NCBI GenBank assembly: GCA_947482115.1 | Contig: CANKII010000001.1 | Location: 448,785 to 512,784, forward strand | Direction of reading: 5' to 3' | DNA length: 64,000 nucleotides | From: Fibrobacterota bacterium | Lineage (GTDB): Bacteria > Fibrobacterota > Fibrobacteria > UBA11236 | Part shown: piece after piece, positions 7,868 through 61,792 of the stretch | How positions within the stretch are numbered: position 1 is the first letter of the stretch | How the letters are laid out: each line of letters starts with the position of its first letter | Translations under genes and position numbers: made by a program | Notes under the pieces: model-generated | Told to the model about the DNA's origin: nothing | Seen by the model: the letters and a program-made list of their open reading frames with translations, nothing else | Database searches by the model: none

Positions 7868-7874
7868 GTGAAGT

Positions 7875-8615: not shown

Positions 8616-9568
8616 AGGAAACTGCGAAAGATTCCGCCAAGATGCGTTACTTCGACGATCTCACTGCAGTGATTGGTCGTACGCCCTTGGTGAAATTGAA
8701 CAAGGTGATTCCGCATAATGATTCGCTGTTTCTGGTGAAGCTGGAAGGGCGCAATCCCGGCGGTTCGCTGAAGGATCGCATTGCCTTAAACATGATTCTG
8801 GATGCGGAGAAAAAAGGCAAGCTTAAGCCCGGTATGACCTTGATCGAGCCGACCAGTGGCAATACCGGCATTGCACTGGCATGGATTTCCGCCGTGCGCG
8901 GTTACAAGTCTTTGCTCATCATGCCGGAATCCATGAGTGTGGAGCGTCGTAATTTGCTCAAAGCCTATGGCGCGGAATTATTGCTCACACCTTCACATCT
9001 CGGTATGTCCGGCGCGATTGAGAAGGCGAAAGAGTTGCTGCGCACGCACAAGGATTATTTCCTGTTGCAGCAATTCGACAATCCCGCCAATCCAGAAGCG
9101 CATCGCAAAATCACGGCTGAGGAAATTTGGGAAGATACGGCCGGTCAAATCGATGTTCTGGTCGCAGGCGTGGGCACAGGTGGCTTTGTCACCGGTGCGG
9201 GGAAGTTGTTGAAGGAAAGGAAACCTTCCCTGAAAGTCATTGCGGTGGAACCGGAAGGTTCACCTGTGCTTTCCGGTGGCAAAGCAGGATGGCATGAGAT
9301 TCAAGGCATCGGCGCTGGATTCGCTCCCTCGGTGTTAGACCGCCATGCTTATGACGAAGTCTTCCGCGTGAGCAATGAATCGGCATGGGAAACCAGTCGC
9401 CGTTTGGCGCGTGAGGAAGGCATTCTCGCCGGACCTTCGTCGGGTGCAAATGTGTATGCGCTAAACGAGATCGGCAAGCGACCCGAGTTTCTCGGTAAAA
9501 CTTTATTGACTTTGATTTGCGATACCGGGGAACGTTATCTCAGCACCCCTTTGTATAGTCTGGATTAA
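8611..9568 (+). CDS. cysK: cysteine synthase (O-acetylserine sulfhydrylase)
   Basis: PLP-enzyme motifs TPLVKLN, KLEGRNPGGSLKDRIA, TSGNTGIALA, GVGTGG; ATG 8611 overlaps cysH stop (ATGA). Confidence 0.85.
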
Positions 9569-9607
9569 ACCCGAACCCTGAACGTAGTCGAAGGGTGAGA
9601 TAATTCC

Positions 9608-10411
9608 ATGCCCCAATTTACTCCGGAAGAAATGCAACGCTATGAACGCCACTTCTCGTTGAGTGGCGTCGGTTTTCAGGGACAACTCAAACTCAAGAAT
9701 TCCAAAGTGCTCGTGGTTGGTGCGGGAGGATTGGGTTCTCCGGCGTTGTTGTATTTAGCCTCAGCTGGCATTGGCCGAATCGGCATTGTGGATGGGGATA
9801 CGGTGGATCTCACCAATCTGCAACGCCAGATCATTCATGCCACGCCGGATATCGGAAAACTCAAAACCTTGTCGGCCAAGGAAAAAATCGCAGCCATCAA
9901 TCCCGATGTCGAAGTGATTGAACACAGGGAATTTCTGGATGCTTCCAATGTCACTCGAATTTTCGCGGACTATGATTTTATCGTGGAAGGTTGCGATAAT
10001 TTTGCGACCAAGTTTCTGGTAAACGACGCCTGTGTGATTCTCGGAAAACCGTTTTCCCATGCGGGCATGTTGCGATTCGAAGGTCAGACCTTCACCTATG
10101 TTCCCGGAAAAAGCCGCTGCTATCGCTGCTTGTTCCGTAACCCGCCACCGCAGGGCAGCGTTCCGAATTGCGCCGATGCGGGAATTCTGGGAATGTTGCC
10201 GGGGATTTTGGGATCGATTCAGGCTACAGAAACGGTGAAGTATTTGTTGGACTTGGGAGATTTACTTACGGATCGTTTGCTGATCTTTGATGCATTGGCG
10301 ATGCATTTTCGGGAAATCAAAGGCTCTCGCGATCCCGGTTGTCCAGTATGTGGTGATCATCCAACCATTACGGATTTGCGGGATGAAGCCGGTGGGAGAT
10401 GCGAGAGCTGA
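9608..10411 (+). CDS. ThiF/MoeB/HesA-family E1-like adenylyltransferase
   Basis: VLVVGAGGLGSPALLYLASAGIGRIGIVDGDTVDLTNLQRQ nucleotide-binding motif; C-terminal CxxC...CPVC zinc motif. Confidence 0.8.
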   Translation: MPQFTPEEMQRYERHFSLSGVGFQGQLKLKNSKVLVVGAGGLGSPALLYLASAGIGRIGIVDGDTVDLTNLQRQIIHATPDIGKLKTLSAKEKIAAINPDVEVIEHREFLDASNVTRIFADYDFIVEGCDNFATKFLVNDACVILGKPFSHAGMLRFEGQTFTYVPGKSRCYRCLFRNPPPQGSVPNCADAGILGMLPGILGSIQATETVKYLLDLGDLLTDRLLIFDALAMHFREIKGSRDPGCPVCGDHPTITDLRDEAGGRCES

Positions 10412-24977: not shown

Positions 24978-24993
24978 AATATCGAGGGAAACA

Positions 24994-25392
24994 ATGAGAA
25001 TTAAGCGAACATTTTTTCTTGCCGCACTGATTGAGGTTGTGATTATTTCCGGTTGCGCATGCCCGAAGCGAAATATCCAACAACATGAAAAACCCATTCA
25101 AGTCGAGATTGCCACAAATGAAAGTCAGAAGGCAAAACCGAATCCCATCGAGGAAAAAGGAAATCTGTTTCGCGAAAGCTGGACGAAGTTGCGAACAGGA
25201 ATGACGGTCGGAGAGTTAACCCGGCTTTTTGGTTCGGAATTGGGTTTGAGTTATTGCAACCAGCCCAGCGCCTGTCAATGGTCTCCCAAGTTGACTTATT
25301 ACGGTTTTCCGGAAATTAAAGCAGAGATCACCTTCAAGTTCGAAGGCGGCAAGTTGACGGACTGGTCACCAAAGGTCCTGCCGCCCAAGTAA
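24994..25392 (+). CDS. small lipoprotein, possibly BamE/SmpA_OmlA-like
   Basis: Signal peptide + lipobox (IISGCA); ~130 aa; weak BamE-like pattern (TGMTVGELTRLFG...). Confidence 0.4.
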   Translation: MRIKRTFFLAALIEVVIISGCACPKRNIQQHEKPIQVEIATNESQKAKPNPIEEKGNLFRESWTKLRTGMTVGELTRLFGSELGLSYCNQPSACQWSPKLTYYGFPEIKAEITFKFEGGKLTDWSPKVLPPK

Positions 25393-25412
25393 TGCGACTT
25401 GCTTCGTGGGAT

Positions 25413-27455
25413 TTAAGGCGAGTAAACCATTCTGTGGGTAATGGAACCAGACTGTTTGCCATCAAAGTCCTGTCCTGTCATCCGGACAAGATAAAGGCCA
25501 CGCGCAGGGCGGCTGCCATTCGAAGCCAAACCGTTCCAGACAAGAATATTCCGCTGACTTCCAATTTCAATCCGGCTTTCCCAAACCTTCATTCCCTTCA
25601 TATCCAGAATTTCAATCTTGCCACAGGTAGCATTTCCTTTGGGCAGGGCAAACACAATCGCTGATGATCCCGGAATTTTAAGGGTGAAAGATCGGGAACC
25701 TGGTTGTTTTAAAATATCCACCGGGTTGACCACTACGGCAAAAATCAGGGTACTCTTTGTATTTCCCGTCGAATTGGTCACAGTGACAGTATAACCGGCC
25801 GCAGAAACCGGTGTGGTAGGAGTGCCGGAAATAATTCCAGTGCTTGAATTCAGGATCAATCCCGTCGGAAGTGCTGGACTCACAGTGTAAGTGAGTGGAG
25901 TACTTCCTGTAACTGTGGGAATGTTCTGAGAGATCGGATTTCCGACGATGTACAAAGCCGTTGGCGAGGAATATGAAAGATTTGTGGGAGGTGTGTTCGG
26001 TACTGGTGGCATGCCCACAATCAAGGGAAATCCGAGTCCCAGAACCAAATCATTCGATACGCGCACTTCATCAACCTTGCCGCTGAACTGATAATTATCC
26101 CGGCCATTATTGCCCACAAAAAAAGGTCCTGTGGAAACACGGAAAGGATCGGTTACCGGGTTGTTGGTGCCATTACTGTAAAGCTGAAAGGGCGTTCCAT
26201 CGATGTAGCCGTAGGCCTGTCCATTGGATTGATCAAAAGCAATCGCGATGTCCACCCAGCGATTCCGGGGAACGATTCCGTCCACACTCCATTCCCGAAT
26301 CCAATAACCCGTGCCGTTCCTAACCTTTTGGCCATCGGCTTCCAAACGACCGTTCGGGTCAACTACCAAAATGAGGCCGTCGTAAGTACCCATTAGCCAG
26401 CCACCCTGCCCTGGGGTCAAATAAACCCGTGCTTCAAAGGTCATTTTACCGGTGGCGCCAATCGTCAAAGCACTTGCATAGGCATGAGTCAGATAGCTGT
26501 TGGCAATCGTCGCGGTGCCGGTAAAGATGCCGGCGGAATCATAAGGAGAAGAGGTTAATGCGAAATTATTGGCGTTTGACAAACTAAAGGCATTGGGACT
26601 CAAGTCTGTGAATGTGCCGCTGTTGTGGGAGGCAAATGACCACAGTGCCACTGTCGAAGAGTTGAGGGGAAAATGGGTCTGTGTAGCAGGGGGAGAGCCG
26701 ACGATTAAAGGTAAACCAGCCCCCAATATCAAATCATTTGAAACACGGATTTCGTCAATGGTTCCGCTGAATTGATAACTCAGATCCCTACCATTATTGC
26801 CTACGAAAAAGCTGCCTGTTGAAACTCGGAAAGGATCGGTTATGGGATTGCTGGTCCCCGTGCTGTAAAGCTGAATGGGAACTCCATCAATATATCCGTA
26901 AGCCTGTCCCGTGGACTGATCGAAAGCAACCGAGAGATCAAACCATCGATTCAAGGGCACGATTCCAGGAGGACTTACCTCCTGTATCCAATAGCCCGTC
27001 CCATTCCTCACCTTTTGTCCTGCCGCTTGAAAATGGCCGTCCGAACCTATTTGCAGGCTGACGCCATCGTAGGTTCCAATCACCCAGCCACCAAAGTTAC
27101 CCGCACCGCTTTGACCTGGTTTTAAAAACATGCGAACTTCATAGGTTATTCTACCCGTACCCGCGATCGTGAGTGCGCTGGCATTCGCATGGGACAGATA
27201 GCTGGCCGAAAGCGATGCGGAACCCGTAAACACCACGGCAGAATCACTGGGAGATGCCGTTAACGCAAAATTATTGGCACTAGACAAGCTATTACCATTT
27301 GGACTCGAATCAGTGAACGTGTTTCCCACGCGAGAACTAAATGTCCATAGGGCTACGGTGTTAGAATTCACAGTAAAATGTGTGGCACACCAGCTTGGAT
27401 TCGAAACTACGAACAGGGTCAATGTGGATACCAGAATCGATTTCATAGCAGACAT
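25413..27455 (-). CDS. T9SS C-terminal-domain cargo protein with two LamG/concanavalin-like domains and an Ig-like repeat
   Basis: Signal peptide MKSILVSTLTLFVVS; two LamG_3-like domains (FDQSTGQAYGYIDG...IDEIRVSN; second ...VDEVRVSN); C-terminal ~80 aa sorting domain ...LYLVRMTGQDFDGKQSGSITHRMVYSP; track ORF start 27530 likely over-extended. Confidence 0.7.
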   Translation of the reverse strand: MSAMKSILVSTLTLFVVSNPSWCATHFTVNSNTVALWTFSSRVGNTFTDSSPNGNSLSSANNFALTASPSDSAVVFTGSASLSASYLSHANASALTIAGTGRITYEVRMFLKPGQSGAGNFGGWVIGTYDGVSLQIGSDGHFQAAGQKVRNGTGYWIQEVSPPGIVPLNRWFDLSVAFDQSTGQAYGYIDGVPIQLYSTGTSNPITDPFRVSTGSFFVGNNGRDLSYQFSGTIDEIRVSNDLILGAGLPLIVGSPPATQTHFPLNSSTVALWSFASHNSGTFTDLSPNAFSLSNANNFALTSSPYDSAGIFTGTATIANSYLTHAYASALTIGATGKMTFEARVYLTPGQGGWLMGTYDGLILVVDPNGRLEADGQKVRNGTGYWIREWSVDGIVPRNRWVDIAIAFDQSNGQAYGYIDGTPFQLYSNGTNNPVTDPFRVSTGPFFVGNNGRDNYQFSGKVDEVRVSNDLVLGLGFPLIVGMPPVPNTPPTNLSYSSPTALYIVGNPISQNIPTVTGSTPLTYTVSPALPTGLILNSSTGIISGTPTTPVSAAGYTVTVTNSTGNTKSTLIFAVVVNPVDILKQPGSRSFTLKIPGSSAIVFALPKGNATCGKIEILDMKGMKVWESRIEIGSQRNILVWNGLASNGSRPARGLYLVRMTGQDFDGKQSGSITHRMVYSP

Positions 27456-27539
27456 GGTAACCTCGCTTTTCCTTATGACAAGCCCTAACCCAGATTTAAT
27501 TTCGCTTCGTTTCTGCAAAAATGTTGGCAAATTCGGCGC

Positions 27540-29396
27540 CTAAGGTGAATACACCATTCTTCGAGTCACAATACCAGCTTGTTTTCCATCCAAATCGAAC
27601 CCAGTCAAACGAACAAGGTAAAGCCCGCTAGCAGGACGCAAACCGTTGGTAGTAACACCATTCCATGCAAGAGTGTTTTCCCGATTTGCAAGCTCAGTCC
27701 GGCTTCCCCAAATCTTCATTCCCTTCATGTCAATAATTTCCAGCCTGCCATTCGACATGCTTCCTTTCGGCATGACAAATACGATGGATGCAGAGCCTGG
27801 GATTTTCAGTGTGAATGAACTGGCATCGGATTGTTGCAGGATACCTACTGGATTGATTACGGCCAGGGTCAAAGTTGCCGTGGTGCTTCCGGCCTGATTG
27901 GTTGCGGTGATGGTGTAATTTGCCGCTGCTGAAGGTGTGGTGGGTTTTCCGGTAATGATTCCTGTGCTTGTACTCAAGGTAAGGCCTGCAGGAAGTGACG
28001 GACTCACAACGTAAGTGATGGTGGCGCTTCCGCTGATGCTCGGTGTATTGGGTGTGATGGTCGTTCCGACGATGTACAATGCCGAACTGGAGGAGTACGA
28101 AAGACCGGAAGGTGGAAGACGTACTGTAATTACCAGTGTAGTGGTTGCTCCCCCGCTGGCGGTCACCGTATAGCTCGCAGTGGAAGCAGGCGTGGTGGGT
28201 GTTCCGGATATCACCCCGGTGGTTGTGTTCAATGTCAATCCGGCTGGCAAAGCGGGACTCACAGAATAACCGGTTATTGTTCCGTTCACCGTAGGGGTGT
28301 TCGGTGTAATGACTGTACCGACCACATATTGGGCTGGATTTGAGGAGTAAACAAAGGTGGGTGCAGTAGTCACCGTAATGTTCAGCGTGGCAGTTGTGGA
28401 GCCCAGTGTATTGGTTGCAATCACCACATAACTTGCCGGTGGGGAGGTTACAGTGGGAGTTCCGGTAATGGCTCCCGTGCCTGTGTTCAATGTCAATCCG
28501 GCTGGGAGTGCAGGTGTTACGGAGTAGGTTATGGGCGTGGTTCCATTGATCGTTGGAGTGTTTGTTGTGATGGCAGCTCCCACATAATAAGTTGCGGGAT
28601 TCAAGGAATACACAAGATTTGTCGGAGGCGTTTGCACAGTTGGTGGAGTACTGGCATTCAGCGGAAGTCCCGCGCCGTACACCAAATTGTTGGAAACACG
28701 GACTTCATCGATAAGCCCATTAAAAGGGTGGCCGTCAGTAGGTGTGGCTCCGACCTCAAAATTACTTGTCGCCGTTCTCCAGGAATCCGTATTGGGGGCC
28801 GGATATCCTGAATGCGTATAAAGCTGAACCGGGCTTTCGTCGATATAACCGTAAGCCTGTCCTGTGGAGTTATCAAATGAGGTTGCCACATCAACCCAGC
28901 GGTTCAGAGGCACAACCCCATTCGCGGATATAAACCATACCCAATAACCCGTGCCGCCGCTTATTTTTTGCCTTCCAATTGAAAGAAATCCTCCTGCGCC
29001 AATTGTGACAGAAAGGCCGTCATAACTGCCCACGACCGTATAACCAACAGTTCCCGTAGGATACTGTGTTAGATAAATGCGGCCTTCAAGGGTCATTTTC
29101 CCTGTCCCGCTAATGTTCAGCAAAGAGGTATTTGTATGGCTCAGTCCGTTCGCGCCTTGGGATCCCGTAAAGCTGACTGCAGAATCCGTAGGGGAGGAAA
29201 CCAGGGAGAAGCTGTTGGCATTGGATAAGCTAAGGCCATTCGGGCCGAGGTCGGGAATGCTACCGCTGCTCCGCGAAGCGAATGACCACAATGCTGTTGT
29301 TGAAGCGTTCACGGTAAAATGCGTTGCGCTCCAGCCCGGATTCGAAACAACAAACAGGGTCATTGTGGATACAAGAATCGATTTCAGTGTAGTCAT
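27540..29396 (-). CDS. T9SS C-terminal-domain cargo protein with one LamG-like domain and five Ig-like (putative Ig/PF05345-like) repeats
   Basis: Paralogous signal peptide (MTTLKSILVSTMTLFVVS), LamG-like domain (...IDEVRVSNNL), repeated ~75-aa PAGLTLNT.TG.I.GTPT modules, T9SS CTD ...LYLVRLTGFDLDGKQAGIVTRRMVYSP. Confidence 0.7.
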   Translation of the reverse strand: MTTLKSILVSTMTLFVVSNPGWSATHFTVNASTTALWSFASRSSGSIPDLGPNGLSLSNANSFSLVSSPTDSAVSFTGSQGANGLSHTNTSLLNISGTGKMTLEGRIYLTQYPTGTVGYTVVGSYDGLSVTIGAGGFLSIGRQKISGGTGYWVWFISANGVVPLNRWVDVATSFDNSTGQAYGYIDESPVQLYTHSGYPAPNTDSWRTATSNFEVGATPTDGHPFNGLIDEVRVSNNLVYGAGLPLNASTPPTVQTPPTNLVYSLNPATYYVGAAITTNTPTINGTTPITYSVTPALPAGLTLNTGTGAITGTPTVTSPPASYVVIATNTLGSTTATLNITVTTAPTFVYSSNPAQYVVGTVITPNTPTVNGTITGYSVSPALPAGLTLNTTTGVISGTPTTPASTASYTVTASGGATTTLVITVRLPPSGLSYSSSSALYIVGTTITPNTPSISGSATITYVVSPSLPAGLTLSTSTGIITGKPTTPSAAANYTITATNQAGSTTATLTLAVINPVGILQQSDASSFTLKIPGSASIVFVMPKGSMSNGRLEIIDMKGMKIWGSRTELANRENTLAWNGVTTNGLRPASGLYLVRLTGFDLDGKQAGIVTRRMVYSP

Positions 29397-29484
29397 GGGC
29401 CTCTCCATTTGTGTCTTGTAAAAAGAATATTCCCTTTTGAACTTTAACCCGGCGACTCCAGAAAATGTTGGTAAAACCCGATCC

Positions 29485-31773
29485 CTAGGGCGAATACACC
29501 ATTCTTTGAGTTCTAACGATGGCCTGCTTTTTGTTCAAATCCACACCCGTCATGCGAACCAAATAAAGCCCGCTGGCAGGACGCAAGCCGTTCGAAGCCA
29601 AACCGTTCCAGGCAAGAACATTCTGCTGATTTCCGACTTCAACCCGGCTTTCCCACACACTTGTTCCCTTCATGTCCAGGATTTCCAATTTGTAATTAGA
29701 AGCATGTCCATTCGGCAGAGAAAAAACCATTGAAGATGAACCGTGAATTTTCAGGGTGAATGATCGGATATCGGATTGTTGCAGAATACCTACTGGATTG
29801 GTTACGGCCAGAGTCAAAGTTGCCGTGGTGTTTCCCGCCGGATTGCTCGCTGTGATGACATAATTCGCCGCAGCCGAAGGTGTTGTCGGAGTTCCAGAAA
29901 TAATTCCAGTGCTTGCATTGAGTACCAGTCCGGCTGGCAAAACCGGATTTACGGAGTAGGTAATAGTGGCGCTGCCGGTAATGGTGGGGGTATTTGAAGT
30001 AATGGCAGTTCCAACGATGTACAATGCTGTGGGTGAGGAATACGAAAGGTTGGAAGGTGCAAGACGTGCCGTAATGATTAAAGTGGCGGTTGCTGAACCA
30101 CCCGTCGTATTGACGGTAATCACATAGCTGCCGTTCGAAACAGGCGTAGAAGGCGTTCCCGATATGACACCCGTCGTGGTATTTAAAACCAGTCCGCTGG
30201 ACAAGGCGGGGGTTACGGAATAACTGGTCGCTGTTCCAGTCACGGTAGGTGTATTTGGAGTGATTGCTGTCCCCACTATGTATTGAGCCGGGTTCGCAGA
30301 ATAGGAAAGAGTTGGTGCGGGCATCACACTGATATTCAGGGAAAGGGTGGTGGACCCCACGGAATTGGTCGCTGTCACGGTATAATTTGCCGACGGAGAT
30401 ATTACGGTAGGCGTTCCGACAATGATTCCGGTGCCAGTGTTCAAGTTTAATCCGGCTGGAAGCGTGGGGGTCACGGAATAGGTAATCGGCGTTGTACCTG
30501 ATACTGTGGGATTATTCGGGGTAATGGCCGCTCCGATTCCATAAGTTGCGGGATTGGAGGAATAAGTGAGACCGGATGGAGGCGCCAGCACGGTAATATT
30601 CAACGTGGTCAATGTGTATGAAGAACCATTGAAGGCGTTCACCGTATAAATGGTGGCAGGTGAGGATGTCGCGGGAGTTCCTGAAATGGCACCGGTATTG
30701 GTATTGAATGTTAATCCGGCTGGAAGAGTGGGACTGATGGTATAGGACGTGATGGATTGTGTGGTAATAGTGGGAATATTCGGTGAAATGGCAGTCCCGG
30801 CAAAGTACACTGCAGGATTTGTAGGATAAACGAGATCCGATGCGAAGTAGGTCTGGAAAGCGAATTTCAAAACAGTGCCGTTGTCTCCGGCGGCATAACC
30901 TGTGGTGGAATCCGGGAAATAAATGCCGTTGAAATTCCACGTCGTGGGCAGGCTTTGGGAAACCCAATTTGTACCGCCATTGGTGGTTTTGAGAACCACG
31001 TTTGAACTTCCGGATCCGCCCACGGCATAACCGGTGGTGGGACTTATGAAATAAATTCCGCGCAAGGGCTTGGTATTGCCCGTGGTCTGGGCCGTCCAGT
31101 TGGAACCGCCATTGGTGGTTTTTAAAATCCCTCCGCTGAAGGTGGTGGCATAACCCGTTGAACTATTGTTGAAATAGGTGGCCCAAACTATTGCCGTGAC
31201 ACCGCTGGTTTGGGAAACCCAGGTAGCTCCGCCGTTTGTGGTTTTGACAATTCTCCCGCCACTCCCCACGACATAACCCGTATCTGCACTGGTAAAATAC
31301 GCGTTCAGAAAATCAGAGGTCACTCCGCTATTTTGAGTGACCCAGTTTGTGCCGCCGTTGGTAGTTTTAAGAATGGTGCCGCCATATCCGACGACGTATC
31401 CCAGACTCGAATTGATAAAGAAGCCGCGGGTTAGATTTTGGGTGGTACCGCTTGTCTGGAGATTCCAGTTGGCACCGCCATTGGTGGTTTTAAGAATAGT
31501 ACTGGATGCCGTCATCCAACCGGTGCTTGTGTCCACGAATTGAACGAAAGTAACAGCGCTTGAAGTCCCGCTGTTTTGTGCTGTCCAACTTGTTCCACCG
31601 TTCGTGGTTTTAAGAACCGCCGAGCCGCCTACAACGTAGCCGAATCTGGAATTGAGGAAGCTGGCCCTGTGAAGCGTTTCGGACGACCCGGTGGGTAGCA
31701 GGGTCAGTGTTTGTGCCGGAATGATCGAAAAAAGCGCAAGGACACAGAGTGATGCGAGCAACCGGATTTTCAT
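29485..31773 (-). CDS. T9SS C-terminal-domain cargo protein with Ycf48/BNR-like beta-propeller and five Ig-like repeats
   Basis: Signal peptide; seven ILKTTNGGTNW-type blades; same Ig-like modules and CTD (...LYLVRMTGVDLNKKQAIVRTQRMVYSP) as neighbours. Confidence 0.7.
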   Translation of the reverse strand: MKIRLLASLCVLALFSIIPAQTLTLLPTGSSETLHRASFLNSRFGYVVGGSAVLKTTNGGTSWTAQNSGTSSAVTFVQFVDTSTGWMTASSTILKTTNGGANWNLQTSGTTQNLTRGFFINSSLGYVVGYGGTILKTTNGGTNWVTQNSGVTSDFLNAYFTSADTGYVVGSGGRIVKTTNGGATWVSQTSGVTAIVWATYFNNSSTGYATTFSGGILKTTNGGSNWTAQTTGNTKPLRGIYFISPTTGYAVGGSGSSNVVLKTTNGGTNWVSQSLPTTWNFNGIYFPDSTTGYAAGDNGTVLKFAFQTYFASDLVYPTNPAVYFAGTAISPNIPTITTQSITSYTISPTLPAGLTFNTNTGAISGTPATSSPATIYTVNAFNGSSYTLTTLNITVLAPPSGLTYSSNPATYGIGAAITPNNPTVSGTTPITYSVTPTLPAGLNLNTGTGIIVGTPTVISPSANYTVTATNSVGSTTLSLNISVMPAPTLSYSANPAQYIVGTAITPNTPTVTGTATSYSVTPALSSGLVLNTTTGVISGTPSTPVSNGSYVITVNTTGGSATATLIITARLAPSNLSYSSPTALYIVGTAITSNTPTITGSATITYSVNPVLPAGLVLNASTGIISGTPTTPSAAANYVITASNPAGNTTATLTLAVTNPVGILQQSDIRSFTLKIHGSSSMVFSLPNGHASNYKLEILDMKGTSVWESRVEVGNQQNVLAWNGLASNGLRPASGLYLVRMTGVDLNKKQAIVRTQRMVYSP

Positions 31774-31869
31774 GGAATCTCCCTTATTTACCTGTAATAA
31801 TATTCATTCAAATTGGCATTAATCCCGCGTTCGGAAAAATACCGTTCGTAAATTCCGAACAGTTGCGTT

Positions 31870-33419: not shown

Positions 33420-34147
33420 GCCACTCTCCGCTGCTTTTTATAGTCGATCCACGGCATATAGCCGCGTCCCACAACCTTGTAGGTAATCACCGACATCTCA
33501 ATCCAGCGCAATGAGCGGCCTTGCACGCGCCCCTTGCCGAGCTTCAACGCATTCAGGATGGCCTCGATGGATTGTTCGGATTCGACCTCGGTCCACAAAG
33601 TTCCGAACTGTTCCAAGGTGTGTGTATCCGAATCTCCAACCAAGGGCAGCCCCAGCTTTAATGCCGCTTCACGAGCTTTGGCATTCGGATTCCAAAAGCG
33701 GTGGTAAAAACCTGAAATCTCCACGGCATCAAAAAGGTCCGCATTCTCAAAGAGCTTCTCTTTGAGGCACACCGCATTGGGATAAAAAGGATGGGCTGCG
33801 AGGATGAACGCTTTGTCTCCATAAACCGATTTGACTTTTCTCAACTCCGCAAAGGTGTGAACATTGTTCGCCACTTCCGCCGGGAAATTGAGGAGCACGA
33901 CATGGCTGCCCTCAATATCCTGTTCCACGCCAGGAATCAGAAGGATGCCCCGCTCGGCGGCATAGGCCTTGATGCGCTCACTTTCGAATTGTTGGGTGTG
34001 CAAAGTAATGGCCAAAGCCGTATATCCCAGCCGGGCGGCTTTGTCGATCAATTCCTCGGCCGTATGCCATACGTGATGGTCCATGGGATCATTCACCGTA
34101 TGCAAATGCAGGTCTATTTTTTGGACTTCTTTTTGAAATTCGGCCAT
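33416..34147 (-). CDS. PHP-domain metal-dependent phosphoesterase
   Basis: IDLHLHTVNDPMDHH... His-rich PHP motifs, ...GDSDTH. Confidence 0.7.
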   Translation of the reverse strand: MAEFQKEVQKIDLHLHTVNDPMDHHVWHTAEELIDKAARLGYTALAITLHTQQFESERIKAYAAERGILLIPGVEQDIEGSHVVLLNFPAEVANNVHTFAELRKVKSVYGDKAFILAAHPFYPNAVCLKEKLFENADLFDAVEISGFYHRFWNPNAKAREAALKLGLPLVGDSDTHTLEQFGTLWTEVESEQSIEAILNALKLGKGRVQGRSLRWIEMSVITYKVVGRGYMPWIDYKKQRRVA

Positions 34148-34258
34148 AATTTTAAAGGTTTTGGGCTTGAATGCTGCGTGTCAAATATAGTTTACAAAGC
34201 ATTGAAAATAAACTACTTAGGTAGCCTTGAATCACCTTGTTCAGGCCATCGGATTTCC

Positions 34259-35719
34259 ATGAGTTTACCCTGTGCTGTCATCATTGGAAGGCCTAATGTA
34301 GGCAAGTCCAGCCTCTTTAACCGAATCCTCGGCCGTCGCGCTGCCGTGGTTGCCGACCGCGAAGGCGTCACCCGGGATCGACACTATCAGGAAGCCGAGT
34401 GGGACGACAAGCGTTTTCGCATCGTGGATACCGGCGGCTTCATGCCGAAAGAAATCAGTCACCTCGATAGCCAGGTCAAAACCCAAATCGACATGGCTTT
34501 GGACGAAGCTTCGGTGGTCCTCTTCGTACTGGATGGTTTGACCGGTGTTACGGCGCAGGATCAGGAATTCGCCCGCATGGTGATGCGCAAGCGCAAGCAA
34601 GTAATTCTGGTGGTGAACAAATCCGAGAAGCGCGACACGGCCATGGAAGCGCCCGAAGCCTGGTCTTTGGGAATGGGCGAACCTTATCCCGTTTCCGCAT
34701 TGTCAGGTTTTGGCATCCGCGATTTACTTGATCTCATTGTGTCCATGCTGCCCGAGTCCGGTCCGGTTGGGCCTTCACGGGAAATTTTACGCTTGGCTGT
34801 CTTGGGACGCCCTAATTCCGGCAAGAGCACCTTGGTAAATGCATTACTCGGTGAAGAACGCGTGGTCACCTCGGATTTAGCCGGAACCACCCGCGATGCC
34901 ATTGACACCGAACTGGAATATGAAGGTCGCCGCATCGTGCTGACGGATACGGCCGGGTTGCGCAAGAAGTCGCGCGTGCATGATGAGGTGGAGCACTTCT
35001 CCAATCTCCGCGCTCTGGAAGCCATTCGTCGCAGTCAGGTTTGCGTGCTGATGGTGGATGCCACGGACACAGTCAGTGAACAGGACTTCCGCATTTGTGA
35101 AAAGATTCAGGAAGCCGGTCGCGGACTCGTGGTCGTGTTGAACAAGTGGGACGAAGTGGAAGCCGGAGATAAAACCTTCGCCCATGCCGTCAAGGAAATT
35201 CGCCGTCGCAGTCCGGTACTGGAAGGCATGCCCTTCGTAGCCATCTCTGCGTTGACGGGAAAACGCGCCACCAAGGTGCTGGATTTTTCCATCAAGGTCA
35301 AGGACAATCTGGAACGCATTTTGGGCCGCGAAAAAGTCATCGAGTTTTTTCAGCTCGCCTTGGATACACATCCCCATCCCACTTCTTCGCTGGGACCCGT
35401 GCGATTGAACCGGTGTTGTCAGGTTATGGTGGACCCGGTGGCGCTGGCCATCGAGGTATCCAATCCCGAGAGAGTTCTGCCGAGTTATGTGCGCTATTTG
35501 CGCCGCAAGGCCATGGAGCATTTCGACCTCAAGGGCGTACCGTTGCGCATCTGGTTCCGCGATCGTTTTCAATTGCGCACAGATGAAGAGTTGGAAGCGT
35601 ATTTGAACGGACATCGCGAAGGCTTCACCGAATGGGAGGAAGCCGAGTGGATAGAGGAAGGTGCGGCAATCTCCGCTTCTTCGGGAACATCTTCCTCTTC
35701 AGGAGATGAGGAGGAGTAA
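34259..35719 (+). CDS. der: ribosome-biogenesis GTPase Der (EngA)
   Basis: Two tandem GTPase domains (GRPNVGKSSLFN...; GRPNSGKSTLVN...DTAG) plus KH-like C-term; acidic tail; track ORF 33791.. over-extended. Confidence 0.9.
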   Translation: MSLPCAVIIGRPNVGKSSLFNRILGRRAAVVADREGVTRDRHYQEAEWDDKRFRIVDTGGFMPKEISHLDSQVKTQIDMALDEASVVLFVLDGLTGVTAQDQEFARMVMRKRKQVILVVNKSEKRDTAMEAPEAWSLGMGEPYPVSALSGFGIRDLLDLIVSMLPESGPVGPSREILRLAVLGRPNSGKSTLVNALLGEERVVTSDLAGTTRDAIDTELEYEGRRIVLTDTAGLRKKSRVHDEVEHFSNLRALEAIRRSQVCVLMVDATDTVSEQDFRICEKIQEAGRGLVVVLNKWDEVEAGDKTFAHAVKEIRRRSPVLEGMPFVAISALTGKRATKVLDFSIKVKDNLERILGREKVIEFFQLALDTHPHPTSSLGPVRLNRCCQVMVDPVALAIEVSNPERVLPSYVRYLRRKAMEHFDLKGVPLRIWFRDRFQLRTDEELEAYLNGHREGFTEWEEAEWIEEGAAISASSGTSSSSGDEEE

Positions 35720-40357: not shown

Positions 40358-41842
40358 ATGGAACAGGATTTTATCAATAACTCTGAAGAACCCTCCGGAC
40401 AAATACCGGAAGAGGAAGAGTATTACCCCCAAAACCCCGAAGTTGCCGAGGATGGTGACGAGGATTCGGATTTTGACGGGGAAGAAGGTGAAGGTGAAGA
40501 GGAAGAAGACACCTTTGGCAACGGGACTTCGGGACGACCCAGAAAAGGGTTTGACCCCCAGCGGCAAATCCAGAATCTCTCCCAAATCTCGCATGAGTCC
40601 AATGACAGCCAGCGTCGTTTTCGCAAACGGAACAAGCTCAATAAAATCGTAACCCGGATGAAACCGGGTGGAAAGCGCACTCCGGGCCAACAGGGCGGAG
40701 CTTTGGATTACTCTGCGGATTATGACCCCCGTTCGGAAGCCGAGGAGTATACGGCGTTAATTTACGTCACCGAAAACGGCCATGGATTCATGCGCTCGGA
40801 GCGTATCAATTTTCAGGCTCAGGATATTGATATCGTCATCCCGCGTGAAATGGTGCAGCGCTTCGGACTGCGTTCGGGTCACAAGATTCAGGCCATTGTC
40901 CGCGCCAAACGGAATCGCCGCCAGAAGGTGGTTTCCCACCTGCTCTTCATTCAGGATGAGCCGATTGAAACGTGGAGACCGACTCCGCCGTTTCACACTT
41001 TGACCAGCATCAACCCCCACGAGTTCTACCACCTTTCATCCCCTTCGGATGAAGACAAGAGCATGACGCTTTTGGAACTGCTCACACCAATCGGCAAGGG
41101 GCAGCGCGGTCTTATCGTGGCGCCACCGCGCACCGGCAAAACCATTCTAATGGAAAAAATCGCCAATGGCATTGCCCGCAATCATCCGGAAGCGGAGATT
41201 TTTCTGCTGCTCATCGATGAGCGCCCCGAGGAAGTCACACATTTGACCCGCCGCATCAAAGGCAAGATTTACGCCTCCTGTCTGGATCGATCCATCGACG
41301 AACATATTGCGCTCACGCAAATGGTGATCGACATGGCGGAGCGCAAGGTGGAACGCGGCAAGGATGTGGTTATTCTGCTGGATTCCATCACACGCATGGC
41401 ACGCGCCTTCAACAACCAGTTGAAATCCTCCGGCCGCACCTTATCCGGCGGTGTGGACGCCAAGGCCATGCAGGAGCCCAAGAAATTCTTTGGCGCAGCC
41501 CGCAAAATCGAAGAGGGTGGAAGCCTGACGATCATCGCCACGGCGCTGGTCCAAACCGGTTCGCAAATGGACGAGGTAATTTTCCAGGAGTTCAAGGGCA
41601 CGGGCAACATGGAGTTGGTGCTCAACCGCCGACTGGCCGAAAAACGCATCTATCCCGCACTCGACATCGGCATGTCCGGCACCCGCCGCGAGGAATTGAT
41701 CCTGCCACCGGAATATCACAAGGCTGCGTCCCGCTTCCGCCGTTATCTGGCGAATCTTACCGAGGCAAACCAAATGCAGGCAGCGTTGCAGGAATTGGAG
41801 AAATTCAAGAGCACCGAAGCGTTCATCAACGCGTTTGTGTAG
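40358..41842 (+). CDS. rho: transcription termination factor Rho with N-terminal acidic/basic low-complexity insertion
   Basis: OB-fold RNA-binding and RecA-like ATPase core ([11 protein letters not shown] Walker [11 protein letters not shown] loops) highly similar to E. coli Rho; first ~120 aa E/D-rich then R/K-rich disordered segment. Confidence 0.9.
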
Positions 41843-46660: not shown

Positions 46661-47953
46661 TTAAATCCCCAACCCCACATTGATGGCGAAATAACGATCT
46701 TCCGTTTGACCGGTATAATAACCCTTCTCCTCAGCCCACGTCACGGCGTCCACATGAATTGACTTGAACAGGGAAAGGCCGAGGCCCCCTGTCCAATAAC
46801 CTCCCTTGAAACCGCTGGCGAGTCGAACGCTCGCAATCCACCACAGATACTGCTCCACTTCCGCCCCGAAATTGATTTTGTTCAGCGGCTTGTAATTGTG
46901 GTCGTTGTTGAACAAGTCTTCGAGGTCCACCGCGAAATTCACCTTGCGTCCGAATATTCCCCCGTGTTGGAGAATGGCCGGGGTCGCGGCCGCACCCACG
47001 GTGAATTCCGGCGTCACCGGATCGCCATTCAGATACATGCCCATATTTTGCACCGCCGCACCGAAGCGCAACCATGAATATTGCTGCCACAGCGCACCGA
47101 CGTCGATGCCATGTCCATAGCTCAACGGATTACCGTAATTTTCCAATTTGCCATTGAGCGTGTCGATGACGGAATGTTTGAGATTGTCATTCCCAAAATC
47201 GCTGGCCGCAAGCTGATAATTCTCCACCTGCTGGCGGTTGGCCAGACGGTATCCGACACCCACGGAAAGTTTGTCGTTCATGAATCCACGCGCACCCGCA
47301 AGTTGTATGACGGCATCGATTTGAATCCGTTCGACACCGGCCTGCGGCAATAAAATCCCCTGGTCAGCATAGGGCGCCACCGTGGCATCCGCCCAATAGG
47401 CAAAACCAAAATTGTGCATTGCAAACTCCGAGCCGTGTAAAACCCCCACATGGATGGGCTTTCGATCAAAGGGGGTCAAATCCGTTTGCAACGTGGAGTC
47501 ATTCAGGAAGGTGTTTTGATCAGAAAAGGAATTCTGATGATTATTGTAAATATTTTTGAAATCCAACAGATCGCTCAGGTTGGGCGATGTCAGCCCGATG
47601 ACATCCATCCGCAAGTCCATCCGATCGCGGGGATAGCTCATGCCCGGCCTCCGTTTCGGATTTCCCAAAGCATTGATCAGGTTCAGACCTGCGGGATTGT
47701 AAAACAAAGCATCCTTGTCATCCACCACAGCGACAAAGGCATTGCCCATGGACATTGGGCGAAAAGAAAGATGCTGTGGTCCCGATCGGGCAAAGGTGGA
47801 CAAGGGATATAACAGAAAGAAAAAGGCAATCATTCGAAAGCAATGCTGGCCGAGTGACGCCACGGCACCTCGATACACCCGCGTAAACGCGGGCACTCGG
47901 TGACCGTGGCGTTGTATCGAGGCCAGGCCCGAAGTTCTCATGGCTTGCTCCAC
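46661..47953 (-). CDS. PorV/FadL-like outer-membrane beta-barrel protein
   Basis: 430 aa; signal peptide; N-terminal RPMSMGNAFVAVVDDKDALFYNPAGL motif; ends in aromatic barrel terminus (…VGLGI). Confidence 0.5.
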   Translation of the reverse strand: MEQAMRTSGLASIQRHGHRVPAFTRVYRGAVASLGQHCFRMIAFFFLLYPLSTFARSGPQHLSFRPMSMGNAFVAVVDDKDALFYNPAGLNLINALGNPKRRPGMSYPRDRMDLRMDVIGLTSPNLSDLLDFKNIYNNHQNSFSDQNTFLNDSTLQTDLTPFDRKPIHVGVLHGSEFAMHNFGFAYWADATVAPYADQGILLPQAGVERIQIDAVIQLAGARGFMNDKLSVGVGYRLANRQQVENYQLAASDFGNDNLKHSVIDTLNGKLENYGNPLSYGHGIDVGALWQQYSWLRFGAAVQNMGMYLNGDPVTPEFTVGAAATPAILQHGGIFGRKVNFAVDLEDLFNNDHNYKPLNKINFGAEVEQYLWWIASVRLASGFKGGYWTGGLGLSLFKSIHVDAVTWAEEKGYYTGQTEDRYFAINVGLGI

Positions 47954-49806
47954 CGCGATTTTTTGGGTAGGGAAGATTCAGGCACGTAATTCCGCCAGCA
48001 CCCGCCGATGAATGTGACCGCCGAGTCCAATCCGTTCTTCACATTGCTGCTGAGTTGCGAATAGGACTTGCCGGCCATTTTAACCAGCAGAGAATCCTTT
48101 TGAATTCGGATGCGGATGGGCATCTGGGAATCGTCACTCTTCCTGATTTTGATGAAGGATACCTGATTCTGCTTCTCAAAGTTCTTGACGAAGCCCAGAA
48201 CACCGGGCTGGCCCGACATATAGACAGTGTCATAGATTATGGTATGTGCGGAGATATGCACGGTATCCATGCGACAGCGGGGCGGGTGATAGCTGGTATC
48301 GTTGACGCAGAATTGCGGATTGACATGAATCGTGCCGGAATCCAAATGGTCGGGGATGTGAAGCGTGATTCGCAGGCATTGCTGCGGTTGAACCGTAGTA
48401 TCAACAAAACATACCGGGGTAGTGCGACCCGGATAAAATACAGTCTGCTGGGAAATATGGAGTGTGTCTGGAGGATCTTTGCTGTAATCAATACTGTCAT
48501 GTGCGGGAACGTCATAGGAAAAGACGGTGTCGTGTGAAGGAACTGCAATGGAATCGTAGCTGCTATCGTGGGCGAAAACTTGATAGTAATAGGTGCTATC
48601 GTGCGCTGGAATGGAAACTTGAAATGTGCTGTCATGGGCGGGGATGTTTCTCGTCATCGAAACAGTGTCGGGTGCCGTGGAGGTATCCGGTTCCTCTCCA
48701 GCATCATCCATCACGCTATTGTGATCATTGTCGATGAAATCTCCCAAACCCACCGGAACGACCCGTGCATCCTCGTCCACGAAGCCGTCACCGTCATTGT
48801 CCTTGCCGTCCATGATTTCCTCATCCACGCAGCCGTCACCGTCGTTGTCCCTGGAATCCCCAAATTGGTAGAAGGTGATCGCATCACCGAGGTCATTGAT
48901 GACCTTGGTGACATCATTCCCCGAGGAACCGGACAGTGAGGAATCCTTCCCCGTATCCGAACCACCCGACTTGCCGCCACCAATCAGCGCGGCCAATTGC
49001 GAGGCGGAGGCCAGTCCACCGGAGACGTTTTGAATCAGGGAATTCAGGTTATCGCGAGCCACCGGATCGTTTTGCAAATCCGCACGAATGGAACTCAAGC
49101 TGTCCACGGAGAATCCACCATCCCCCTTTCCGAAATGAATTTTTTTCATCAGGGCGTCGCGGGAGTCGATGATGTCGTTCTGATCGAGATCGTAGAGCCG
49201 GGTAACGTTGTAAAGAACCTCGAATGCTGTGAAGTCCACGACGACCTTGTCATAAGGCATGATGAAATCGATTAGGGGGAATCGGCTTCTTTTGCGAAAC
49301 CCGGGTTTCCCCATATTGGCCGAATCGAGGTATTTCCGCATGAAATCCGCCGAATCATTGCCCTTGAGGTATTTGTTGAACCGCCGTGTCAACGTGTCGC
49401 GATCTGTCAGAAGCCCCAAAACACGATTGACCTTGACGGCTGCCTGCAATCTTTTGGTCAGGGCATTATCATCATGGTTTAAAAATGTGAGGGAGCCGCC
49501 GTTTTTTGTGCTGTCCAGATCTTTGAGAATGCCGTTGACGTTCAGCTTGTAATAGCGAACAGCAGCTTTGGCGTATCCGTAATAGGCCATGGAATTTGCG
49601 CTGTCCTCACCAATCGCCTTTTCAAAAGCGGACATGGCTCCGGCGAAATCCTTTTGGCGGAAGAGTTCCTCTCCGTGGGACGTGTTTCCACTCGCGTCCG
49701 TTCCGGCATCCCCTTCGCCGCTGGGATTGAAAATGTTGCAGCCTGCAAGAAAGACTACGGCACCAAGTACCGCAACGGCAAGCTTTATAAACGGATGATA
49801 ACGCAT
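47938..49806 (-). CDS. lipoprotein with TPR-like N-terminus, thrombospondin-type-3-like Ca-binding Asp repeats and tandem AHDS short repeats
   Basis: Lipobox LAGCN; DNDGDGCVDEEIMDGKDNDGDGFVDED; five ~11-aa AHDS(T/S)... repeats; overlaps downstream PorV-like gene by 16 nt (operon). Confidence 0.5.
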   Translation of the reverse strand: MRYHPFIKLAVAVLGAVVFLAGCNIFNPSGEGDAGTDASGNTSHGEELFRQKDFAGAMSAFEKAIGEDSANSMAYYGYAKAAVRYYKLNVNGILKDLDSTKNGGSLTFLNHDDNALTKRLQAAVKVNRVLGLLTDRDTLTRRFNKYLKGNDSADFMRKYLDSANMGKPGFRKRSRFPLIDFIMPYDKVVVDFTAFEVLYNVTRLYDLDQNDIIDSRDALMKKIHFGKGDGGFSVDSLSSIRADLQNDPVARDNLNSLIQNVSGGLASASQLAALIGGGKSGGSDTGKDSSLSGSSGNDVTKVINDLGDAITFYQFGDSRDNDGDGCVDEEIMDGKDNDGDGFVDEDARVVPVGLGDFIDNDHNSVMDDAGEEPDTSTAPDTVSMTRNIPAHDSTFQVSIPAHDSTYYYQVFAHDSSYDSIAVPSHDTVFSYDVPAHDSIDYSKDPPDTLHISQQTVFYPGRTTPVCFVDTTVQPQQCLRITLHIPDHLDSGTIHVNPQFCVNDTSYHPPRCRMDTVHISAHTIIYDTVYMSGQPGVLGFVKNFEKQNQVSFIKIRKSDDSQMPIRIRIQKDSLLVKMAGKSYSQLSSNVKNGLDSAVTFIGGCWRNYVPESSLPKKSRWSKP

Positions 49807-52609: not shown

Positions 52610-52719
52610 TTCAACACACCCGTTCCAAATTTACCGTACAAGGGCTGAAGCTTACCATTCCCCGCAGCACCAGCTCAGCGTATTTTCTCGCATACAAATT
52701 GATGGAGAGAGGGGAAACG

Positions 52720-60068: not shown

Positions 60069-60388
60069 GGGACACCCTCCTTTCGGGAATATACTGTGCT
60101 TCGGAAAGCATTGCAATTAAAAGGGACGTCAAAATACTTGGCAAAAAACTGTCCCATAATTTCTGAATCACGCGTCTCTCCCACATGTTGAGATCCTTGC
60201 GGTACAGCTTAAGCGGCCGTAGTTATTGGGGTTGTTACGATCCGTAATAAAACAGAATCAACAGAAACCCAAACATTGCAACACGCTCATATCAAATCTC
60301 CTGATATTTATGATATGAGGACTGACAGTCATTTAATCCGGGAGATCCACATGCCGCCATAAGTTGACGGAAAACAAAGGAGATGAAC

Positions 60389-61792
60389 ATGAAACGGCAA
60401 GCTTTTTTTCTCACACTATCCCTTCTTGTAACCCTGTCGCTGCCCCAGGAGAATTATTCAACTTGGGCTTATCACAAAAATCTCATTCTGAACACATCCG
60501 GATCGGGGGCAAACGTCATGAGCGATGTTTACAATTTCCCCGTGTTAGTCCGTCTGGGAGTCTCTGATGCCGCCATCTTCACACAAGCTGTTGGAAATGG
60601 AAAAGACATCCGGTTCACCAAACGGGACAATGTCACCCGTTTGCCACATCAGCTGGAGCTTTGGGATGTTGCGAATAAATCTGCAGCTATTTGGGTGCTG
60701 GTGGATACCATTCACGGAAACGTGAGCAACCAATCGATCCGAGTGCATTGGGGGCAGGGAGCCGCCCAAGACAGTTCCAACGGGGCGGCAGTTTTTGACA
60801 CGGGCAGGGGTTTTCAGGCGGTATGGCACATGGATGGAAACGCCCCGGCAAGCGATGAACCCGATGCCACAAAAAACGGATTCACTGCCGCTCAAAATTC
60901 GAATCCCGCCTCGGTATCGGGAATGATTGCAGGAGCACGCAACTTTGATGGAAGCTTCAATTATTTTTCGACTACAAACACGGCCAGTGGTCCATTGAAT
61001 TTCCCTCAAAACGGTCGCTATACAATTTCCGCATGGGTCAACGCGGTGGCGTTTACTGCCCACGGGGTTGTCGTTTCCAAGCATGACCGGCAATATGCGC
61101 TGAAACTCAATAACGGCAACAGTTGGGAATTTTTCGAGTTTGAGGACGCATCCGGATGGAATGCCGTGTCTTATCCTCCAGCGGACGCCCAGGGAACATG
61201 GGAATACCTGACCGGAGTATGGGATGGATTCAATGCTTACCTGTATATCAACGGCATTCAGGTGGGCAACAGTCCGAACCTCACGAGTAGCACGAATGCA
61301 AGGGTTACGAACACGAATGTGACCATAGGGCGCCAGAACGAAAGCGCCAATCGGTATTTCATGGGGCTTATGGATGAAGTTCGGATGGCCAGTGTTTCAA
61401 GGGATTCCAACTGGGTCCGGTTGGAATTTCAGAATCAGCAGGCCAATCAAACCCTGGCATCCCTTTCAGATACCATTCCAACCGGTATTGGGAGACCTCC
61501 GCTTTTGACCGCATCTGAGCCACGCCTCTCAATCGATTTACAGAGTGGCAGTCTCATTGTCCGCATGCAAAAAAGCGATGCTTTAAAGGTTCGTCTGCTG
61601 ATGATGGACGCTCAAGGCCGGACAATCTGGAATCAAACCGTTGGAATGAGTCCGGGAATGAACCGGATCACCTGGAATCGACAGCTTGGTAACGAAAGGG
61701 TGACAGGGATTTGTCTTTTACAAGCCACTTTCCTGGACGCAAAAAAAAGAACGATTTCAATCGTCGAAAGGAAAATTCCGTTTATCCGGTAG
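60389..61792 (+). CDS. secreted DUF2341 + LamG/concanavalin-like domain protein with probable T9SS C-terminal domain
   Basis: Signal peptide MKRQAFFLTLSLLVTLSLPQ; DUF2341-like N-domain (WAYHKNLILNTSG...DIRFTKRDN...LELWD); LamG_3 motifs (QAVWHMDGN...GLMDEVRMASVSR); C-terminal ~85 aa beta-sandwich tail. Confidence 0.55.
   Translation: MKRQAFFLTLSLLVTLSLPQENYSTWAYHKNLILNTSGSGANVMSDVYNFPVLVRLGVSDAAIFTQAVGNGKDIRFTKRDNVTRLPHQLELWDVANKSAAIWVLVDTIHGNVSNQSIRVHWGQGAAQDSSNGAAVFDTGRGFQAVWHMDGNAPASDEPDATKNGFTAAQNSNPASVSGMIAGARNFDGSFNYFSTTNTASGPLNFPQNGRYTISAWVNAVAFTAHGVVVSKHDRQYALKLNNGNSWEFFEFEDASGWNAVSYPPADAQGTWEYLTGVWDGFNAYLYINGIQVGNSPNLTSSTNARVTNTNVTIGRQNESANRYFMGLMDEVRMASVSRDSNWVRLEFQNQQANQTLASLSDTIPTGIGRPPLLTASEPRLSIDLQSGSLIVRMQKSDALKVRLLMMDAQGRTIWNQTVGMSPGMNRITWNRQLGNERVTGICLLQATFLDAKKRTISIVERKIPFIR

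Follow-up and report, generated by a model that had tools for sequence, protein, structure and literature searches.

A tandem family of modular proteins with apparently exchanged, putative binding heads and a FlgD_ig/T9SS-CTD-like C-terminal domain in a freshwater Fibrobacterota bacterium

Three neighbouring minus-strand genes, labelled A, B, and C, were analysed within a 64-kb stretch of DNA (hereafter the window) from an uncultured freshwater Fibrobacterota bacterium (class Fibrobacteria). The three genes are old, well-diverged copies in an ordinary multigene family of putative secretion cargo. A probability of about 0.6 is given to the following reading of the locus as a whole: the array is an old tandem family of Sec-exported modular cargo proteins, each built from a head, a stalk of He_PIG modules, and a basic C-terminal domain (CTD), and displayed on, or released from, the cell by a T9SS-type (type IX secretion) route.

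The three tandem open reading frames (ORFs) and their domain content were found as given in a preliminary description of this DNA. Gene A (25413..27455, minus strand, 680 amino acids (aa)) encodes a Sec signal peptide, two Laminin_G_3 domains (approximately 27386-26676 and 26708-26022), one He_PIG module (approximately 25973-25725), and the CTD. Gene B (27540..29396, minus strand, 618 aa) carries a signal peptide of the A type, one Laminin_G_3 domain (approximately 29120-28686), three He_PIG modules (28628-27849), and the CTD. Gene C (29485..31773, minus strand, 762 aa) starts with a different signal peptide, followed by a Ycf48/BNR-like beta-propeller (approximately 31710-30844, with a blade repeat period of 120-132 nucleotides (nt)), four He_PIG modules (approximately 30843-29794), and the CTD. 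Hydrophobic N-terminal signal sequences were recognised in all three proteins by direct reading of the translations. Pfam scores were 69.6 for Laminin_G_3 (PF13385) in A (two stretches) and 39.0 in B (one stretch), against a cutoff of 27.6; 42.9, 86.1, and 87.1 for He_PIG (PF05345) in A, B, and C (one, three, and four stretches, cutoff 24); and 66.4 for PSII_BNR in C (cutoff 27), in agreement with the double LamG, single LamG, and Ycf48/BNR propeller heads first assigned. Assignment of gene C as a true Ycf48 was rejected (NCBIfam equivalog NF010237, 74 bits against a cutoff of 326), and its head is referred to as a Ycf48-like propeller only. The Ig-like repeat PAGLTLNTxTGxISGTPT, which is the He_PIG repeat, is indeed present in all three genes (eight copies: one in A, three in B, and four in C); its period is 255-264 nt, corresponding to 85-88 aa, and the length of approximately 75 aa that had been given for it was not reproduced. 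The different N-terminal heads on a common He_PIG stalk and C-terminal domain support the earlier proposal that A, B, and C are tandem paralogs that arose by duplication and domain shuffling.

The start of gene A was placed at the ATG at 27455, as most likely over the TTG at 27530, and that of gene B at 29396, because the two starts align with each other, because GAGG precedes both, and because the public gene calls (680, 618, and 762 aa for A, B, and C) agree with this choice. A start of B at its first ATG (622 aa) was rejected; no public protein matched it, and the public calls take the second ATG (618 aa).

The DNA of the three genes is similar far above chance (blastn E values between genes of 1e-46 to 1e-147), at a level of identity that does not fit the near-identical 3′ tracts reported in the preliminary description. 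Over the last 100 codons, which contain the CTDs of A (25416..25715), B (27543..27842), and C (29488..29787; all on the minus strand), the pairwise identities were 68-73% for DNA and 62-67% for protein. The comparison on which the earlier claim had been based (27540-27900 with 29485-29830) gave 71% identity (258/363). The longest exact words common to the gene pairs measured 16, 18, and 21 nt and were not longer than those obtained in column shuffles (p 0.06-0.47). A homologous C-terminal region of approximately 190 aa is common to A, B, and C (62-72% aa identity), and B and C are approximately 70% identical over 369 aa (1087 nt), comprising three He_PIG modules and the CTD; the resemblance between the genes thus extends beyond their ends.

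At the 5′ side, the pairing that had been cited as evidence for near-identical tracts in all three genes (27400-27530 with 29290-29408) was out of register and gave 43% identity. When placed in register, the 5′ regions of A and B were 76% identical over 127 nt, rising to 86% within the best 79 nt; the signal-peptide tracts themselves (27366..27455 in A and 29307..29396 in B, both on the minus strand) were 82% identical over 90 nt and 86% over 79 nt. This similarity is limited to A and B: the signal peptide of C (MKIRLLASLCVLALFSIIPAQT) is unrelated, and the N-terminal aa identity of A and C is approximately 21%. The locus thereby provides a caution of some general value, in that amino acid motifs compared by eye can pass for near-identical DNA, here with an actual DNA identity of approximately 70% and saturated synonymous sites.

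An intergenic motif (TTTRCCAACATTTT) was found at only two sites in the window, both on the minus strand: as TTTGCCAACATTTT at 27518..27531 (9 nt past the stop codon of B and 63 nt ahead of the ATG of A) and as TTTACCAACATTTT at 29462..29475 (10 nt past the stop codon of C and 66 nt ahead of the ATG of B). It was rejected as a regulatory element, since this count was equalled in 59% of shuffles, and it was found neither upstream of C nor upstream of the distant homologues on two public contigs (L007 and L008). It is treated as a duplication remnant, copied along with the upstream region of the LamG gene, with no demonstrated signal. Scans for sigma-70 promoters and for terminators gave no excess over shuffles, and no terminator-like site was located in either intergenic gap.

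Rates of synonymous (dS) and nonsynonymous (dN) divergence between the copies were determined by the method of Nei and Gojobori. For the CTD, dS came to 1.0-1.6, and for the He_PIG region to 1.24; LamG was saturated, and the signal peptides of A and B differed by a dS of 0.69. Where the encoded residue is conserved, four-fold degenerate sites agreed in 30-55% of cases, with 25% expected from composition. These values speak against the ongoing gene conversion that had been proposed for the gene ends, and that proposal had itself named similarity at the protein level without nucleotide identity as the outcome that would tell against it; by that measure the conversion claim is refuted, with one exception. 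The exception is a tract of 60 nt at the junction of stalk and CTD (27825..27884 in B and 29770..29829 in C, both on the minus strand; TTATLTLAV.NPVGILQQSD), in which 57 of 60 nt (95%) are identical and the local dS falls to 0.13. Its shuffle p value of approximately 0.0005 applies to a best window picked post hoc, and the tract may at most be a relic of one short, old conversion event. The dN value was approximately 0.25, and dN/dS amounted to approximately 0.15-0.25, which indicates purifying selection. A B-like protein from another species (P0116) is about as distant from A, B, and C as these are from each other, and the duplications are therefore older than the present species.

The CTD (approximately 95 aa) is read as a divergent member of the FlgD_ig/T9SS-CTD superfamily, borderline with respect to the classical type A CTDs, that most likely serves as an outer-membrane sorting signal. 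It is strongly basic (isoelectric points of 10.2, 10.1, and 10.0 in A, B, and C), and that of C was modelled by AlphaFold2 as a seven-strand beta-sandwich (pLDDT 81; 80.9 before rounding). No more than 0-1 residues separate the domain from the stop codon, both in the three array genes and in a fourth gene of this class (60383..61792, plus strand), which encodes DUF2341, Laminin_G_3, and the CTD (aa 390-468 of 469). The CTD is thus the final domain of four proteins with Sec signals in the window, and it likewise occupies the extreme C-terminus of distant homologues. When the CTD profile was compared by hhalign with a set (A5) of 20 classical type A CTDs, drawn from the matches of Ycf48-like proteins, a probability of 95.6% was obtained (E 1.1e-8). 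The invariant columns of the classical alignment are N, P, G, G, and Y, and the CTD keeps both the hydrophobic strand followed by G (MKG) and the GxY motif (GLY). Ycf48-like and LamG homologues in Bacteroidota and Ignavibacteria have PF18962 at the equivalent position. According to reviews, the T9SS is restricted to the FCB superphylum (Fibrobacteres-Chlorobi-Bacteroidetes), Fibrobacteres included (PMC8754138, PMC9127263), and T9SS CTDs, described as basic in Fibrobacter, have been proposed on cellulases of F. succinogenes (PMC6851124).

Several results weigh against a T9SS route. In the search with the curated T9SS-CTD model TIGR04183, only C passed, and barely so (23.9 against a cutoff of 23); A scored 16.0 and B gave no match. 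The earlier statement that all three genes carry a T9SS sorting domain is thus upheld by this model for C alone, and the call for the three CTDs, taken together with the profile-profile result, is regarded as reasonable but borderline. None of the three reached the threshold for PF18962 (Por_Secre_tail): C scored 17.3, with the cutoff at 27, and A and B did not appear among the matches. The CTD has no PNP motif, an invariant or almost invariant element of the classical alignment; the equivalent stretch reads KIPGS, and a WNG motif of the FlgD type is carried instead. A search of 1.84 billion representative proteins with a profile (A1) of the CTD and its distant homologues returned 17,057 proteins at E ≤0.001, the top matches being giant proteins with 7-24 internal FlgD_ig repeats that also match CHU_C. 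Because the profile mostly matches such internal tandem repeats, the FlgD_ig fold is not per se a sorting signal. Finally, no T9SS core component was found above threshold within the 64-kb window.

A single candidate for a T9SS component was identified in the window, below threshold: a PorV/PorQ-like outer-membrane barrel of the FadL type (46661..47941, minus strand). Its PorV/PorQ N-terminal motif reached 29.6 bits, whereas PorV_fam requires 90, and its structural model (pLDDT 78) matched FadL (1e-6) and PorV (1.6e-6) about equally; both results count on the negative side as well. The motif was likewise sub-threshold in all 32 Fibrobacteria homologues of the barrel, the modelled fold fits FadL/TodX as well as PorV, and a phmmer comparison with the PDB gave nothing useful. 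The model is compatible with a PorV-like protein, and the barrel may be a divergent shuttle or attachment component of a T9SS. The barrel is a conserved protein of Fibrobacteria, its homologues there being annotated as 'hypothetical'. The upstream gene (47938-49806, minus strand) overlaps the barrel gene by 4 nt (16 nt if the longer GTG ORF ending at 47953 is taken); it encodes a lipoprotein of 622 aa with a weak match to tetratricopeptide repeats and is apparently co-transcribed with the barrel gene.

Among the alternative readings, the one that survives best takes the CTD as an ordinary FlgD_ig structural or binding domain, the proteins then being periplasmic or exported otherwise, by outer-membrane vesicles or a type II secretion system. 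It draws on the low curated scores of A and B, the missing PNP motif, the internal repeats found with the profile, and the lack of an above-threshold core component in the window, and further on the FlgD structure 3c12 as the best PDB match of profile A1 (3.6e-6). The CTDs of PorZ (0.004) and PorU (0.41) followed in that search, and Foldseek of the CTD model gave weak matches (E 0.015-0.07) with FlgD first, the CTD of the T9SS substrate NucA in the translocon complex (8glk_D) at rank 7, and the PorU CTD (6za2_B) at rank 23, these last two at E 0.03-0.07; the PorZ, NucA, and PorU matches belong to the evidence for the favoured reading. The FlgD_ig model itself (PF13860) was passed by C (31.7 against 27); A (21.2) and B (22.2) were below its cutoff. 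What an ordinary structural domain explains less well is the terminal placement of the CTD in every case, in Sec-signal proteins that have no other relationship, its strongly basic character, its profile-profile homology to classical type A CTDs, the equivalent position of PF18962 in the homologues from Bacteroidota and Ignavibacteria, and the phylum in which it occurs. On this balance, a CTD with a purely structural or binding role is judged somewhat unlikely, and a T9SS-type sorting domain is preferred.

A further variant would make the CTD a distinct sorting signal enriched in Fibrobacteria, that is, a third type beside A and B, characterised by an FlgD_ig-like fold, no PNP, a WNG...GxYxxR core, and an RxxYxP tail, and recognised by the PorV/PorQ-like barrel at 46661-47941, which would then be a divergent component, conserved across Fibrobacteria and missed by the curated T9SS models; this is considered doubtful. 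The models for FlgD_ig, CHU_C (the type B T9SS signal), and Por_Secre_tail overlap heavily, so that the annotation of such CTDs is blurred; four proteins with 7-24 tandem FlgD_ig repeats (P0248, P0253, P0265, and P0299) had strong CHU_C scores, and some of them end in OmpA. A scan of the public contigs with an alignment of the three CTDs gave one match, in a distant member of the Ignavibacteriae (L006). Because the probable sorting domain falls between the FlgD_ig and the T9SS type A CTD models, standard annotation will tend to under-call cargo of this kind in Fibrobacterota.

Under the favoured T9SS-type reading, the proteins would be exported to the periplasm by Sec, as predicted from their signal peptides, and a T9SS-type translocon would recognise the CTD and move them across the outer membrane, a step suggested by sequence features. 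They would then be attached to the surface or released, with the He_PIG stalk holding the binding head outwards, and may act as adhesins or as glycan- or particle-binding proteins, the LamG or propeller heads being the putative ligand binders. The family would have originated by duplication combined with replacement of the N-terminal head. In this scheme A and B appear as duplicates that include the upstream region, B and C have the three-module stalk and the CTD in common, and at most one short, old conversion patch (the B/C tract of 60 nt where stalk and CTD meet) would be left; purifying selection keeps the family at present. Read in this way, the locus illustrates how a surface-protein repertoire may be built in uncultured freshwater Fibrobacterota, with different binding heads joined to an Ig-like stalk and a sorting domain that all members have in common.

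The closest general counterpart is the type A CTD cargo of Bacteroidota (TIGR04183/PF18962; for example, the gingipains of P. gingivalis and RemA/NucA of F. johnsoniae), with which the array proteins have in common the Sec signal, a head, Ig-like spacers, a basic seven-strand beta-sandwich of approximately 80-100 aa at the extreme C-terminus (here a predicted model), the hydrophobic strand followed by G (here LEILDMKG), and the GxY motif. Unlike type A CTDs, they score at or below the curated cutoffs, lack PNP, contain an extra FlgD-type WNG...NG segment, and have a tail that reads R-M-V-Y-S-P and is not K-rich; the host, moreover, is a Fibrobacterota bacterium, and its 64-kb window showed no T9SS core gene above threshold.

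Within the same phylum, the array resembles in general layout the proposed T9SS CTDs (formerly BTD/Fpm-1) on glycoside hydrolases of Fibrobacter succinogenes S85 (Raut et al. 2019, PMC6851124), where a basic module likewise sits at the C-terminus of modular, secreted proteins and is recognised in part by TIGR04183. The heads differ, being LamG or beta-propeller here and not CAZyme (carbohydrate-active enzyme) catalytic domains, and the present organism belongs to a distant freshwater lineage (leucyl-tRNA synthetase (LeuRS) 70-73% identical to the closest organism-named matches, which are metagenome-assembled genomes (MAGs) of Fibrobacteria/Fibrobacterota). Gene C is also comparable to Por_Secre_tail proteins annotated as 'YCF48-related protein' or 'photosystem II stability/assembly factor-like', found in Bacteroidota, Ignavibacteria, Kapabacteria, and Calditrichia: the propeller is 32-48% identical and the logic of head, spacer, and CTD is the same, although their spacers and CTDs mostly belong to other families (PF19408, PF18962). 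With the Ig-like domain of FlgD (PF13860, flagellar hook-cap), the best PDB match in sequence and fold, the CTD has the WxG...G...GxY signature in common; in contrast to FlgD, it closes modular, putatively secreted proteins whose locus has no flagellar genes in its vicinity, and the Pfam cutoff is exceeded in C alone.

A second Ycf48-like propeller protein (312 aa) is encoded in the window at 51671-52609 (plus strand). It has a lipoprotein-like N-terminus and neither He_PIG nor CTD, is 26-28% identical to the propeller of gene C, and shows a weak BamI-like match. On public contig L008, from a distant relative, a homologue of the fourth CTD-class gene (8674-10077) has as its neighbour a gene that combines Ycf48, He_PIG, and CTD, and a GSDH gene resembling that at 52699-54561 in the window is close by. 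Two tRNA-like sequences were noticed by eye on the same contig at approximately 6400-6600, immediately upstream of P0037, the homologue with Ycf48, He_PIG, and CTD.

The array is part of a block of 6.9 kb (24978-31869) between the convergent genes of a SpoU methylase and an aldo-keto reductase. The block also contains a small ORF with a lipoprotein-like signal peptide (24994..25392, plus strand, 132 aa), for which no family match was obtained. Two sister lineages (L011 and L012, with LeuRS 80% and 75% identical) keep the order PHP, 279-aa protein, SpoU, aldo-keto reductase, LeuRS, and in both, the interval from SpoU to the reductase is free of homologues of the array genes and of the small ORF; the block is therefore a lineage-specific insertion in a conserved housekeeping neighbourhood. 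The junction has taken different insertions in different lineages: it is empty in L011 (a gap of 13 nt, locus 8967-8981), holds a DAHP synthase gene in L012 (locus 7692-8744), and holds the 6.9-kb block here. The more distant homologues of the array genes are single genes at other places. A mobile-element origin of the block was rejected, since searches at its borders revealed neither an integrase nor a tRNA nor flanking repeats, and since its GC content of 50.0% is not atypical beside the 51.6% of the window.

The same data bear on a reading in which the block was acquired horizontally as an island that arrived as a finished three-gene unit and did not grow in place. Such an arrival would account for the absence of the block from both syntenic sister lineages, for the different gene at the same junction in L012, and for the distance of P0116, which puts the duplications before this species. 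The borders, however, showed no integrase, tRNA, or flanking direct repeats, the GC content is unremarkable, the closest homologues all come from the same Fibrobacteria-type proteins, and a further paralog (P0007) is apparently located on the same contig as the array, which fits an intragenomic origin. Acquisition as a finished island is held to be unlikely.

Variation in the population was assessed in a public collection whose index lists the exact A protein under 38 blocks; 24 contigs were read (metagenome assemblies and one MAG, GCA_943331555.1). The trio of 762, 618, and 680 aa recurs on the fetched contigs that cover the array, and three contigs are cut off inside it. Five public contigs compared with the window were 99.93-100% identical (0-5 differences per 10-22 kb). 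Just two single-nucleotide polymorphisms (SNPs) fall within the array, and gene C holds both of them (29896 and 30768); the remaining three differences in L001 lie outside the array. The identical three-gene layout in these contigs gives no sign of copy-number variation, for which the preliminary description had proposed a check, and in view of this near-identity the divergence between the paralogs exceeds the diversity of the population by more than three orders of magnitude. Two of the public sequences (L001 and L002; one a scaffold from ENA, the other a MAG contig from GenBank) stop inside gene A at 26643 and 26645, that is, between its two LamG copies (78% identity); the ends could reflect an assembly break caused by the LamG duplication, or strain heterogeneity.

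Devices that could switch expression were searched for as well. Neither tandem nor simple-sequence repeats were found in the array, and no promoter or gene start is enclosed by inverted repeats, the only inverted-repeat pairs being 20-21 nt long, 76-90% complementary, and 1.5-7.9 kb apart. No recombinase family was found among the Pfam matches of the flanking genes (which include SpoU methylase, PHP phosphoesterase, Der, PlsY, aldo-keto reductase, and LeuRS) or among the other window ORFs scanned.

The remaining reading, that of a recombination or phase-variation hotspot in which ongoing gene conversion keeps the gene ends near-identical for variable surface display, as the preliminary description had proposed, could point to the tandem layout with modules in common, the 95% identical B/C tract of 60 nt, the 86% identical A/B signal-peptide tract, the two contigs that end inside gene A, and the location of both in-array SNPs in gene C, but it is largely refuted and is considered highly improbable in view of end tracts of 68-73% identity with dS of 1.0-1.6, exact runs not above chance, the different signal peptide of C, the lack of repeats and recombinases in the regions scanned, and the identical trio on the fetched contigs. 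The array therefore differs from gene-conversion or phase-variable surface-antigen cassettes in all three of their marks, namely near-identical tracts (the 60-nt B/C tract excepted), a switching device, and strain variation (in the contigs compared).

Two further genes of the window deserve mention. The Rho termination factor encoded at 40358-41842 (plus strand) has a long, highly acidic N-terminal extension with runs of E, D, and G ahead of the conserved core. The ORF of the GTPase Der/EngA (33791-35719, plus strand) comprises 642 aa, against 486 aa in the public calls; its N-terminal 156 codons, which overlap the upstream divergent region, are probably untranslated.

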